A stretch of DNA of 58,270 bases from an uncultured Candidatus Saccharibacteria bacterium. GTDB taxonomy: Bacteria > Patescibacteriota > Minisyncoccia > UBA9983. Both the position numbers and the translations under genes were made by a program. The notes below the pieces were generated by a model. That model saw only the letters and a list, made by a program, of their open reading frames with translations. It was not told the origin of the DNA and did not search any database. Below are positions 55,177 to 58,270 of this stretch, one piece after another (position 1 is the first letter of the stretch; each line of letters opens with the position of its first letter). The stretch is taken from NCBI GenBank assembly GCA_964438405.1, contig CAYTKF010000003.1:1-58270 (forward strand). The letters are read 5' to 3'.

Positions 55177-55800
55177 ATGGTGCACAAACGCAAAACTAAG
55201 AAGTCAGTTATTGTGGCTATTGTTGGTCTTGTCGGTTCCGGTAAAAGTTCTGTGACTAAAGAACTTGCTAGGCATATCGGTGCCACCGTTATTAAAGGCG
55301 ATGATATTCGTATCGAGCTTCGCAAGCAGGGTGAACGGTATGAACAAGCTCGAGTTATTGCTGAAAATGTTGCGCTTGAAGTTGTAAAGCGAGGCAGTAA
55401 CGTTATTCTTGATTCTGATTTTATTGAAGCGAATAAACGAGCAAGTGTTCGTGAGAAAGCGCGGAAAGCTGGTGTGCGTCTCGTCTTCGTTCGTACACAC
55501 TGCGATCTCGATGTGGCAGTTGGCCGTGTTCTAACTGCAACCTATCATAATCGTGTGGACGACTTTTTCGGAGGTGCGTCTTCGAAATGGACAGGAGGCG
55601 AGCAGACAAAAGGTGCGGTAGTAAAAATCCGCGAGATGTGGCGTCGCACGCCTCATCACTATCGCTGGGTCAATCAAGGCGGCGGTAAGTGGATTCTCAA
55701 AAAATTTCCGTTTCCCCTTTTTGCCGAAATTGACACCACAACTGATTCCTGGAAAAAGGAAGTGAAGAAATGCGCTAAAAAACTTTTAGCGCAAAAATAA
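55177..55800 (+). CDS. P-loop kinase (AAA_33-like)
   Basis: Walker A GLVGSGKS, GDDIRIEL, VILDSDF. Confidence 0.75.
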   Translation: MVHKRKTKKSVIVAIVGLVGSGKSSVTKELARHIGATVIKGDDIRIELRKQGERYEQARVIAENVALEVVKRGSNVILDSDFIEANKRASVREKARKAGVRLVFVRTHCDLDVAVGRVLTATYHNRVDDFFGGASSKWTGGEQTKGAVVKIREMWRRTPHHYRWVNQGGGKWILKKFPFPLFAEIDTTTDSWKKEVKKCAKKLLAQK

Positions 55801-55868
55801 AATTGTTATTTTTTGTAATTTGGTCCGTGCTTGAAAAAGCCGGACTTTTTGTTTTTTATCCACAGCGC

Positions 55869-55898
55869 TTGCCTTTTTGTCTTTGGAAGTGTTATACT
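55869..55898 (+). promoter_or_regulatory. Sigma70 promoter of a small RNA
   Basis: TTGCCT-18nt-TATACT with extended TG; no plus-strand ORF follows before the terminator. Confidence 0.65.
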
Positions 55899-55903
55899 TA
55901 TAA

Positions 55904-55993
55904 AGTGCTTGTGGGGCGTCAGCCCTATTCGGCTAATACATAAGCTGAAGGCAGGCACTACAAAGATACCCCTTGCGGGGTGTTTTTGTTTTT
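55904..55993 (+). ncRNA. Putative structured small RNA (three-way junction plus terminator)
   Basis: P1 AGTGCTTGT/GCAGGCACT, P2 GGGC-GTCA-GCCC, P3 TTCGGCT/AGCTGAA, then ATACCCC-TTGC-GGGGTGT and a T-tract. Confidence 0.7.
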
Positions 55994-56471
55994 AGTCTTC
56001 TTCGGGATTACCATTCATTGTTGTAAAAAATCTTATATCTCTATATTTATTTGTAGTCCAGTCGGGAATAATGCTTAAAAAATGCATTGTCCCGTTGTCT
56101 CCTATTTTTCTGATTATTACTTTAATTTTTCTGCCGTCAATTATTGCGATTATACCCCAATATTTGACTGGCTTAGTTTTTCTAATTTTTTTCTTGAAAC
56201 TTTTAACTTCAAATTCTTTTATTGTTTCTTCAAATTCTTGATAAGTTGTTGATGTTTTTATAAGTTTGACTGCCAATGGAAGCAATTTAAATCTCAATAT
56301 TTGAGAAGATTTTTCTCTTTCCGAATGCGCCCGCTTAAAAATAATATGATTAAATGATTCAGAGGGAAAATATATATCTTGATTAAAAACAGGAGAAAAA
56401 ACCTTACCAATTCCATTATAAAAATTTTGTGCATTCTCTTTTAGTTTTTCGTAGTTAGAAATATCTTCCAT
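55992..56471 (-). CDS. BECR-fold (PBECR/RelE-like) putative ribonuclease
   Basis: IYFPSESFNHIIFK...RFKLL...YWGIIAII..KIKVIIRK...HFLSIIP pattern. Fold assignment is an inference. Confidence 0.6.
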   Translation of the reverse strand: MEDISNYEKLKENAQNFYNGIGKVFSPVFNQDIYFPSESFNHIIFKRAHSEREKSSQILRFKLLPLAVKLIKTSTTYQEFEETIKEFEVKSFKKKIRKTKPVKYWGIIAIIDGRKIKVIIRKIGDNGTMHFLSIIPDWTTNKYRDIRFFTTMNGNPEED

Positions 56472-56512
56472 AATGAAACTTTATCATTTTTGGTTTAATT
56501 TATCCACAGCGC

Positions 56513-56540
56513 TTGACAGGAAAAATTAGGAGAGTAGAAT
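56513..56540 (+). promoter_or_regulatory. Sigma70 promoter upstream of the SAM riboswitch
   Basis: TTGACA-16nt-TAGAAT, preceded by TTATCCACA (56500-08). Confidence 0.7.
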
Positions 56541-56566
56541 GTAATTAGACAATTAAATAAGTGGTT

Positions 56567-56667
56567 TTATCAAGAGAGGCACGAGGGTTCTGGCCCGATG
56601 ACTGCCCGACAACCTGCCAATAAGTCCTTTGGCAAGGTGCCAAATCCAGCCCGCAAGGGAAAGATAA
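56567..56667 (+). ncRNA. SAM-I (S-box) riboswitch
   Basis: TTATCAAGAGAGG..GAGGG..TGGCCCGATGA..CCCG.CAACC...GGTGCCAAATCC...AAAGATAA matches the SAM-I consensus, with P1 TTATC/GATAA. Confidence 0.9.
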
Positions 56668-56757
56668 TTTGGCGATTTTTGTTTGCCAAGAATTAAAGAA
56701 CTCTTTCCCAGCGGAAGAGCTCTTTTACAATTGAAGAAAGTAGAAAGGAGAAAAGAA

Positions 56758-57336
56758 ATGAGCGAAAACTGGAAAGACATTCTTGAAGCAGTTCAAGGTT
56801 TTAAAGACAACAGAAAGGACCATTTTCCTCAGGCGGATAAAATGGTTGAATTTTTTAACCAAGTGTCTACGGAGAATTTAGTGGTTCATCTTGAGGAAAT
56901 TTTCCAACTTTTCAAGCAGTGGCCGTATAATCAACATGATGACGAGGCTCAGAACGCAATACAAATTGCCATGAGCAGATTGATTTGTCATTTGACACCG
57001 GACCGTCAGTTTGTATTAGTTAAGTTGGGGTTAAGGCATTTGGCTGAGGAGTTGGATTTTTCAGAATCCGACCTGAACGAAAGCGGAGTGCCGATTCCCA
57101 AATGGCTTCACCTGTGGAATATTTTTGCCACTTACAAATCATTGTTTAAGAATTATGTCCAAGTGAGACAATTGCGCTCTTTAGCAAAAAAACTCTGCGC
57201 AACGCACCCGTTTTTTAAAAACTACTATTTTATCTTTGACCAGTTGATTCTTGTTCCAGAAAGAATGAGGATGTCTCGACTGGAAAGAATCAAGTGGTTT
57301 CGTGAAATTAAGAAACCCAAATGGCTCATTTCTTGA
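56758..57336 (+). CDS. Hypothetical helical protein under the SAM riboswitch
   Basis: AAGGAG SD before ATG 56758; no family recognised. Confidence 0.7.
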   Translation: MSENWKDILEAVQGFKDNRKDHFPQADKMVEFFNQVSTENLVVHLEEIFQLFKQWPYNQHDDEAQNAIQIAMSRLICHLTPDRQFVLVKLGLRHLAEELDFSESDLNESGVPIPKWLHLWNIFATYKSLFKNYVQVRQLRSLAKKLCATHPFFKNYYFIFDQLILVPERMRMSRLERIKWFREIKKPKWLIS

Positions 57337-57354
57337 TATATTTTGTTCTTTTGT

Positions 57355-57380
57355 GGCACTCGAAAGGGTGCCTTTTTATT
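57355..57380 (+). terminator. Intrinsic terminator
   Basis: GGCACTC-GAAA-GGGTGCC followed by TTTTT. Confidence 0.82.
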
Positions 57381-57412
57381 TTTATCCACAGAACGATTTA
57401 TTGCCAAGCGGC

Positions 57413-57440
57413 TTGACAGGAATTTTTATAAGAATATAAT
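57413..57440 (+). promoter_or_regulatory. Promoter of the unlinked 23S rRNA gene
   Basis: TTGACA-16nt-TATAAT; DnaA box at 57382-90; boxA-like GAACTTTAACAA at 57565-76. Confidence 0.72.
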
Positions 57441-57764
57441 TGGAATTACAGTATGAGTAACATTATAAAAACCCAATATTTGAAGCGGAAAATCTAGCTG
57501 TCTTTTTTTGCGATGTGTCAGAATGTCCGCTTCTAAAAGGCGGATTTTTTAATCAGAATGAATAGAACTTTAACAATTTAGCAGGTAAAAAAGTAGAATA
57601 AGTATATAAATTTCCTAATAGGAAATTAAGGGCGTATGGTGGATGCCTAGACATCAAAGGGCGATGAAGGACGTGGCGTGGCTGCGATAATCTTCGGGGA
57701 GCTGCCAAGCGAGCTTTGATCCGGAGGTTTCCGAATGGGGCAACCCATCGTGATTTAATCACGA

Positions 57765-57848
57765 TACGCAGATTTGCGCAGATTTCTACGCAGATTCTCG
57801 CGGATTTTATCCGCGTTTATCCGCGCAGGCATCTGCGTTTATCTGCGA
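57765..57848 (+). repeat. Repeat-built intervening sequence in 23S (helix 10 region)
   Basis: Four CGCRGAT units followed by four inverted ATCYGCG units. Confidence 0.8.
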
Positions 57849-58102
57849 GTGAACCCGCTGAAGTGAAACATCTCAGTAAGCGGTGGAAAAGAGAATAAAA
57901 ATTTATTCCCCCAGTAGCGGCGAGTGAAAAGGGAAGAGCCCAAACCCCGATACTTTAGTATCGCGGGGGTTGTAAGATAATAACATCTATTTAATTAGGA
58001 GAGTCTATAAAATAAAACTTCGTTAGTTGAATCTTGCTGGAAAGCAGAGCCAGAGAGGGTAATAGCCCTGTAAGCGAAAACGGTTTTATGCTCTCAGTTA
58101 TT

Positions 58103-58139
58103 TGCGCCTCAACGGCGCATCTGCCGACGAGGCAGAATT
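58103..58139 (+). repeat. REP-derived insertion in 23S rRNA
   Basis: TGCGCCTCAACGGCGCA plus TCTGCCGACGAGGCAGA; matches the element at 40489-40544; flanked by ATT on both sides. Confidence 0.8.
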
Positions 58140-58215
58140 CTTGAGTACTTCGAAACATGATTGGTTCGGAGGAATCCGGGAGAACTAACTCCCAAGGCTA
58201 AATACCTTTGATGAT

Positions 58216-58252
<37 letters not shown>

Positions 58253-58270
58253 CAGCCCGGTGAGGGCGAT

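Follow-up and report, generated by a model that had tools for sequence, protein, structure and literature searches.

What is a riboswitch for S-adenosylmethionine (SAM) doing ahead of a gene with no recognisable function? The question arises near the 3′ end of a 58,270-nucleotide (nt) contig (CAYTKF010000003.1, assembly GCA_964438405.1) from an uncultured Candidatus Saccharibacteria bacterium, the whole of which we refer to as the window. A first-pass annotation had described a SAM-I riboswitch followed by an open reading frame (ORF) of 192 amino acids (aa), and had offered two explanations: either the gene has a new function related to SAM, or it is an orphan that has captured a riboswitch. 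The answer that we favour, with moderate confidence, is that the leader is a working SAM-I OFF switch controlling one gene by transcription attenuation, recruited in one lineage of the Candidate Phyla Radiation (CPR, or Patescibacteria) to an accessory scaffold protein with a probable, as yet undefined, link to SAM.

The SAM-I aptamer and its expression platform

The elements of the transcription unit are the following.

56513-56540, + strand: sigma-70-type promoter of the riboswitch transcript, TTGACA-16-TAGAAT, with 11 of 12 consensus matches
56567-71/56663-67, + strand: aptamer helix P1, from the RF00162 alignment
56576-87/56594-607, + strand: aptamer helix P2, from the RF00162 alignment
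56590-93 with 56646-49, + strand: L2-J3/4 pseudoknot, CUGG with CCAG, a perfect complement, from the RF00162 alignment and the sequence
56608-18/56631-41, + strand: aptamer helix P3, with one A.C mismatch at its base, from the RF00162 alignment
56650-52/56657-59, + strand: aptamer helix P4, with a GCAA closing loop, from the RF00162 alignment
56651-56714, + strand: predicted antiterminator, an alternative fold in the unconstrained minimum free energy structure that uses P4 together with the P1 3′ strand and the terminator 5′ arm
56695-56733, + strand: terminator-like hairpin, core stem 56701-07/56713-19, tail CUCUUUUACAAUU, from a loose terminator pattern scan and folding
56745-56751, + strand: Shine-Dalgarno (SD) sequence AAAGGAG, 6 nt 5′ of the ATG (56758)
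56758-57336, + strand: 192-aa ORF, whose N-terminus aligns with the N-termini of its homologues
57355-57372 plus U tract, to 57382, + strand: intrinsic terminator of the 192-aa gene, GGCACUC-GAAA-GGGUGCC, from scan and folding

The Rfam SAM-I model (RF00162) matches 56564-56670 on the + strand with 61.7 bits, against a gathering score of 44.4, and an E-value of 6e-12 for the whole window. This match, which spans model positions 1-108 of 108 and lies above the threshold, bears out the earlier call of a canonical SAM-I aptamer; it is the single riboswitch of the 58-kb window. Helices P1-P4 are arranged in the alignment around a four-way junction with its conserved junction and core nucleotides; the highly conserved consensus positions are nearly all kept, and the conserved strings UUAUCAAGAG, GAGGG, CUGGCCC, AUGA, CAACC, GGUGCCAA and GAAAGAUAA are seen. 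P3 contains the pairs C56610-G56639 and A56611-U56638, which we take to be the SAM-contacting pairs of the published SAM-I structure. By alignment, the kink-turn region of P2 appears as CGA (56582-84)/GAUGAC (56597-602) against a consensus of gGA/uaUGAA, with one A-to-C change. Four further contigs of the same population carry identical copies of the riboswitch. The promoter, SD sequence and downstream terminator proposed in the first-pass annotation were also recovered, the promoter being near consensus.

The hairpin between aptamer and gene, AAAGAACUCUUUC-CCAGC-GGAAGAGCUCUUU, had been placed at about 56696-56732 as a possible terminator; it is present and is terminator-like by scan, yet its coordinates are 56695-56727. 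Its core stem (56701-56719, three G-C pairs, −5.7 kcal/mol) is followed by CUCUUUUACA, and can be extended by pairing of an A tract with the U tract (56695-99/56723-27), reaching −10.4 kcal/mol. As in many intrinsic terminators, the A tract 5′ of the hairpin mirrors the U tract. The terminator 3′ of the ORF is strong, with a 7-bp G+C-rich stem and a GAAA loop, and hence the transcription unit is monocistronic.

Folding of the leader gave two alternative states. Left unconstrained, it reaches a minimum of −59.7 kcal/mol, in which the antiterminator is formed and P1 and P4 are both missing; the antiterminator helices (CCGC:GCGG; GGGAAAGA at 56657-64 with UCUUUCCC at 56702-09; and UAAUU:AAUUA) enclose a small hairpin at 56670-88. 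With P1 and P4 enforced, as a mimic of ligand binding, the energy is −50.3 kcal/mol, and the hairpin at 56701-19 forms, followed by CUCUUUU. Over 56645-56735 the antiterminator state is predicted at −25.3 kcal/mol, compared to −18.6 kcal/mol for the terminator state. In these models antiterminator and terminator are mutually exclusive, their common strand being the 3′ strand of the aptamer, as in classical S-box leaders. Between the 3′ end of the aptamer and the downstream region there is a perfect 8-nt complement, which falls exactly on the 5′ arm of the hairpin and was equalled in only 33 of 5000 shuffles; together with the E-value of the aptamer, this makes the locus more than a product of chance.

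From these elements we infer ligand binding and the direction of regulation, and we are confident that the RNA is a functional SAM-I OFF switch acting by attenuation. Transcription would start about 7 nt past the −10 hexamer, near 56547. With SAM bound, P1 and P4 would stay closed and GGGAAAGAUAAUU would be barred from downstream pairing; the hairpin at 56701-19, extendable to 56695-56727, would then form before the U-rich tail, and most transcripts would stop 5′ of the gene. With SAM scarce, the 3′ end of the aptamer would pair with 56691-56714 as the antiterminator, the hairpin would be blocked and the 192-aa protein would be made.

This leader resembles the S-box leaders of Firmicutes (Bacillus subtilis yitJ and metE, the Thermoanaerobacter tengcongensis metF aptamer, and RF00162 in general) in its four-way junction, P1-P4, junction nucleotides and L2-J3/4 pseudoknot. 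It also shares with them a P1/P4 3′ strand common to an antiterminator that competes with a hairpin plus U tract, and, as predicted here, the OFF attenuation logic. It differs in its CPR/Patescibacteria groundwater host, its short P1 (5 bp) and P4 (3 bp) and its weak terminator. Its cargo is different too: a monocistronic HEAT-like scaffold instead of the usual gene for synthesis or transport of methionine, cysteine or SAM.

The 192-aa protein and its family

A word-based search with the 192-aa protein returned three homologues (38-41% identity). An exhaustive hidden Markov model search of 1.84 billion cluster representatives returned nine true family members only, and four more came from a profile search over 5.8 billion clusters. 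With about 15 relatives, out of billions of proteins, the ORF is thus a genuine gene. GTDB genomes and IMG/VR yielded no further loci of the family, and JGI metagenome contigs yielded one short locus. The motifs QVRQLRSL and MRMSRLERxKWF are kept across the family. CPR-type members are basic (pI 8.7-9.6, with the exception of P0009 at 7.9), and their C-terminal 35 residues are very basic.

An AlphaFold model built on an 11-sequence alignment (predicted local distance difference test 87.5, predicted template-modelling (TM) score 0.80) shows ten helices and no strands of note. Foldseek comparison with PDB retrieved generic helical-repeat proteins only, among them designed repeats, Rrp1, PP2A B56 and ARM proteins, all below significance (best E 0.015, TM score at most 0.53). 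A profile search of PDB gave one PUM-HD match that is not significant (E 0.14), and Pfam and NCBIfam gave zero matches to the 192-aa protein. Other family members show scattered sub-threshold matches to HEAT-type Pfam families (PDS5, Gcn1_N and HEAT_EF3_N), each in a single member. As modelled, then, the product is a soluble all-alpha HEAT/ARM-like solenoid scaffold with a basic C-terminal tail, and no recognisable enzyme or transporter. The first-pass description of a helical protein without membrane segments or recognisable motifs stands. Compared with known HEAT/ARM alpha-solenoids (designed repeats, Rrp1, PP2A B56, importin-alpha-like proteins), it is alike in its predicted all-alpha stacked paired helices, and differs in being much smaller, in lacking a significant match and in having its own two motifs.

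Several identities were considered for this protein and set aside. A known enzyme or transporter of methionine or SAM, named in the first-pass annotation as the finding that would overturn its reading, is ruled out: there is no Pfam, NCBIfam or PDB sequence match, and the Foldseek run that had been proposed, made with the alpha-solenoid model, gave no structural match to such proteins. SAM is an endogenous methylating agent, and this raised the idea of a HEAT-like DNA alkylation-repair glycosylase of the AlkD/AlkC type; there is no match to Pfam DNA_alkylation, and such proteins are absent from the PDB profile matches (E up to 10) and from the top 50 Foldseek matches. A phage, plasmid or defence gene is not indicated either, with no match in PHROGs, PADLOC, IMG/VR, INPHARED or PLSDB and no match to the model among viral structures (Foldseek); CPR elements are poorly represented in those collections, and an island origin is thus not disproved. 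Finally, the G+C content of the ORF (~0.40) equals the window mean (0.39), which speaks against recent horizontal import as judged by composition.

Since the protein has neither catalytic nor transport features, it would most likely work through a binding partner, be it a protein or a nucleic acid. Novel genes controlled by SAM riboswitches have been described in Bacillales, Clostridia and Chloroflexi, and are usually interpreted as related to methionine or cysteine (Sun et al., 2013; PMC3766115). The present case is like these in that the riboswitch is the only functional clue to an uncharacterised gene. Those genes, however, usually encode enzymes or transporters, and their association with the riboswitch recurs across genomes, whereas here the cargo is a scaffold that comes under direct control in just one species.

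Riboswitches beside distant relatives, and how the readings compare

The first-pass annotation had suggested checking whether homologues also carry SAM riboswitches, and the outcome is divided. On the CPR side, there is no SAM riboswitch, even at E up to 1, beside six homologues (P0002, P0003, P0004, P0006, P0007 and P0008) at eight loci (L001-L004 and L018-L021), where the family genes have short leaders and promoter-like sequences of their own. A riboswitch conserved 5′ of orthologues is therefore ruled out for these loci, and SAM control is not a trait of the family. Their neighbours vary. At L001/L002 the family gene lies near a ParB-N6/N4 DNA methyltransferase, a small sigma-70 region-2 protein and a tRNA. 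At L003 a TylF-type SAM-dependent methyltransferase stands 55 nt 5′ of P0002 on the same strand, and a second contig with P0002 has a HigB-like gene downstream.

Three members of a distant, high-GC branch do adjoin SAM riboswitches, on the opposite strand. This branch (~30% identity to the 192-aa query, G+C 0.53-0.58, one member from an Acidobacteria metagenome-assembled genome) has a constant operon made of an HTH_17 (excisionase/MAD1-like) gene, the family gene, a ParA/MinD-type ATPase of ~380 aa and a ~316-aa protein. A tblastn search of the window for such a ParA-like partner found none. For P0013, P0015 and P0016, which are mutually 52-69% identical, the intergenic region 5′ of the operon contains the SAM-I/IV riboswitch (RF01725), scoring 45.7-49.0 bits against a threshold of 41.1 over the full model:

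L010, 5446-5560, − strand: SAM-I/IV riboswitch (RF01725)
L011, 1589-1709, − strand: SAM-I/IV riboswitch (RF01725)
L014, 131-253, − strand: SAM-I/IV riboswitch (RF01725)
L015, 134-256, − strand: SAM-I/IV riboswitch (RF01725)
L016, 2-124, − strand: SAM-I/IV riboswitch (RF01725)

P0012 (L013), a more divergent member, has no SAM-I/IV riboswitch. Across the high-GC loci the riboswitch and ~70 nt of leader are conserved while the gene led varies: a thrB-like homoserine kinase plus metK at L011, a DUF4407-vWA-PP2C-Ser/Thr kinase cluster at L010 and an unrelated N-terminus at L014. A SAM riboswitch heading a cluster that resembles a conflict system, as at L010, is odd in itself. These SAM-I/IV riboswitches have the same ligand as the SAM-I switch of the window, belong to the same clan (CL00012) and adjoin the same protein family. 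They differ in sitting on the strand opposite the family gene, in leading the divergent gene and, apparently, in using an SD-sequestering GUCUCC element unlike the attenuator of the window.

The family thus meets SAM riboswitches twice and SAM-dependent methyltransferases twice, and for this reason we favour a SAM-linked, non-enzymatic binding role. These associations lead us to infer a role connected with the cell's SAM or methylation economy, one that matters at low SAM. SAM control would have been gained in this CPR lineage only, in a family of very rare accessory genes. For about six lineages, two independent adjacencies would be improbable by chance, on the order of 1e-4 by a rough estimate, if SAM riboswitches flank ~0.1-0.2% of genes.

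Several observations weigh against this reading. All six of the other CPR-type homologues that were read lack the riboswitch; the high-GC riboswitches do not lead the family gene, and those three loci may represent one single evolutionary event. Within the leader, P1 has only five Watson-Crick pairs and P4 only three, and the weak hairpin core is followed by only four consecutive U, compared to −9.6 to −17.8 kcal/mol and at least five U in three neighbouring terminators. The platform has no covariation support, there being one sequence version (the other contigs are 99-100% identical). No RNA runs contain this sequence, which occurs in three groundwater DNA runs only.

The strongest competing explanation, which we consider possible yet doubtful, is incidental capture. 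The switch would be functional but the protein unrelated to SAM: in one species, a rare accessory gene would have come to lie behind a SAM-I leader, or acquired one, with regulation that is neutral or only loosely useful. The riboswitch-free loci, with their own promoters and short 5′ untranslated regions, fit this well, as does a tiny, patchy family with variable, island-like neighbours (ParB-DNA methyltransferase, small sigma-70 region-2 protein, HigB, excisionase-like helix-turn-helix (HTH) protein). The near-duplicate TTATCCACAG...GCTTGACAGGAA modules at 56500 and 57382 are likewise compatible with insertion or duplication. However, a second, distant branch adjoins SAM-I/IV riboswitches, a pair of adjacencies hardly expected by chance; the ORF has the average G+C of the genome, with no sign of recent import; and plasmid, phage and viral collections gave no match. 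Both explanations of the first-pass annotation therefore keep support, and the evidence does not fully decide between them: the riboswitch-free CPR loci pull towards capture, the SAM-I/IV adjacency and the TylF neighbour towards a SAM-related function.

A bolder version of the SAM link, to which we give little credence, would make the family a SAM-status effector of accessory or conflict islands, in which the riboswitch senses a collapse of SAM instead of serving metabolic feedback. The scaffold would be induced as SAM falls and would act on a SAM-dependent methylation or defence module; the collapse could come from starvation of the episymbiont or from a phage SAM-degrading enzyme. What fits it is the range of neighbours (the ParB-DNA methyltransferase, the TylF methyltransferase, HigB, an excisionase/MAD1-like HTH protein, a ParA/KGGVGR-like ATPase and a PDC-S10-like protein), the kinase cluster led by the SAM-I/IV riboswitch at L010, and the fact that the family adjoins SAM riboswitches in two very distant lineages.

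About equally improbable is a translational or ON switch, where the hairpin is an anti-anti-SD element and not a terminator. In the SAM-bound form the extended hairpin (56695-56727) would sequester CUCUUUU and leave the SD free, and without SAM CUCUUUU (56720-26) would pair with AAAGGAG (56744-50). The poor quality of the terminator (core −5.7 kcal/mol, four U, and no U tail left upon full extension) speaks for such a model, and so does the complementarity of CUCUUUU to the SD, a helix that appears in predicted folds. Yet this helix, a weak one, is predicted for the free state and the P1/P4-enforced state alike and hence cannot tell them apart, which makes the translational model a minor rival only. 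In isolated 56690-56775, core hairpin plus SD helix reach −12.6 kcal/mol, versus −10.8 kcal/mol for the extended hairpin, computed on its own shorter fragment. Moreover, all characterised SAM-I riboswitches are, to our knowledge, OFF switches.

Least probable of all is a decaying relic that no longer binds SAM, with the strong promoter driving constitutive expression: the genome is reduced, 61.7 bits is below what we would expect of a typical SAM-I aptamer, and there are mild deviations (two U.U mismatches at the outer end of P1, the A.C in P3, the 3-bp P4), but nearly all highly conserved positions, the pseudoknot complement and the matched antiterminator are kept, the score is well over the Rfam gathering threshold, and a functionless 210-nt structured leader would probably be lost from a streamlined genome.

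The SAM-I class itself is well known; what is unusual here is the CPR host, the scaffold-type cargo and a second association in a distant lineage. We found no paper on SAM riboswitches in CPR. Bacteria of this radiation need hosts to supply most of their metabolites, and hardly any work exists on how they are regulated. A riboswitch is one of the few clues to the role of an unknown gene that do not depend on function, and this one points at a family with no annotation, no solved relative and ~15 known sequences. If the link to SAM is real, the family would bring a new participant, one that is not an enzyme, into the economy of SAM or methylation. If it is incidental, a complete S-box attenuator is still documented in Patescibacteria, which could be used as a native ligand-controlled expression element, of the kind that a 2024 perspective on these organisms asks for (PMC11665869).

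The surrounding genes and promoter modules

Genes for a type IV pilus, NrdD/NrdG, GroEL, LigA, GatA, RNase J, rplJ/rplL and a CsoR-CopA copper cluster are found in the window; no methionine or SAM metabolic genes lie within ~10 kb upstream of the riboswitch. The first-pass idea of a biosynthetically minimal organism fits this gene content, as seen from one contig, and the groundwater source. At 55177-55800 (+ strand), ~0.7 kb 5′ of the riboswitch promoter, there is a gene for a 207-aa P-loop kinase with an AAA_33 match (Pfam APS_kinase at 32.3 bits against a threshold of 21.1), possibly a generic small-molecule kinase.

Two further features flank the riboswitch promoter on its 5′ side.

55992-56471, − strand: divergent gene for a 159-aa protein, 72-82% identical over its full length to relatives in many Patescibacteria lineages
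56500-56508, + strand: TTATCCACA motif, equal to the DnaA-box consensus, 4 nt 5′ of the −35 hexamer; an exact copy, one of eight in the window

Relatives of the 159-aa protein come from Nealson-, Azam-, Komeili-, Lipton-, Staskawicz-, Nomura- and Woesebacteria and Minisyncoccia, all Patescibacteria. They form at least 629 clusters, nearly all 159 aa long. This distribution, with the gene content, the 23S rRNA gene with its insertions and the groundwater source, marks the organism of the window as a member of the CPR/Patescibacteria. The protein is outside any Pfam family, and viral contigs gave no matches; 8 of 21 family members show a weak match to LPD3 (PF18798; best E 9.5e-4), the window copy not being among them. 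At L001/L002 a 33%-identical homologue lies directly 3′ of the family gene in convergent orientation (tblastn E 1e-12 to 9e-16), and by tblastn it is the sole gene, besides the family gene, common to L001/L002 and the window. Judged from this arrangement, the 159-aa and 192-aa proteins may be functionally paired; their relative orientation is not kept, and only the window and L001/L002 are long enough for the comparison. A toxin-antitoxin-like pair is unlikely: the genes are divergent here, convergent in L001 and never co-transcribed, and the 159-aa family is far wider.

The eight exact copies of TTATCCACA are all on the + strand (8134, 10619, 41916, 44253, 54323, 55856, 56500 and 57382) and none on the − strand, against an estimated chance expectation of ~0.2-0.3 per strand. 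They are intergenic, in or beside gaps between large + strand ORFs with a T run ahead of each, and lie 4-35 nt 5′ of promoter-like hexamers, including those of nrdD and the riboswitch. The homologue loci of other CPR lack the motif, which may serve as a site for DnaA or another transcription factor, or be a lineage-specific promoter element.

Two of these copies belong to near-duplicate promoter modules, TTATCCACAG...GC(G)GCTTGACAGGAA, which bracket the riboswitch-ORF cassette at 56500-56524 and 57382-57424 and, from their sequence, could reflect promoter duplication or cassette insertion. A third TTATCCACAGCGCTTG copy lies 640 nt upstream, at 55856-55871. It opens a stretch (55856-55995, + strand) that runs from the TTATCCACAG motif through a promoter-like TTGCCT-17-TTATAC and a stable fold of ~90 nt to a strong terminator (55960-89). 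The fold is predicted at −46.3 kcal/mol (z −6.8), with none of 200 shuffles as stable, and has no match to an Rfam family; this apparent small transcription unit is a candidate unclassified small RNA.

The module directly 3′ of the ORF terminator heads a similar stretch (57382-57552, + strand), in which the TTATCCACAG motif is followed by a perfect TTGACA-16-TATAAT promoter (57413-40) and by a unit of ~100 nt with a 14-codon ORF (MSNIIKTQYLKRKI) and a terminator at 57525-45; its fold is unexceptional (z −0.6). The stretch lies just 5′ of another promoter (57570-99) and of the 23S rRNA gene (57616-58270, + strand), which has no 16S gene ahead of it and inside which the contig ends. The 5′ region of this 23S rRNA carries two expansions, of 67 nt where the model has 13 and of 61 nt where it has 19.

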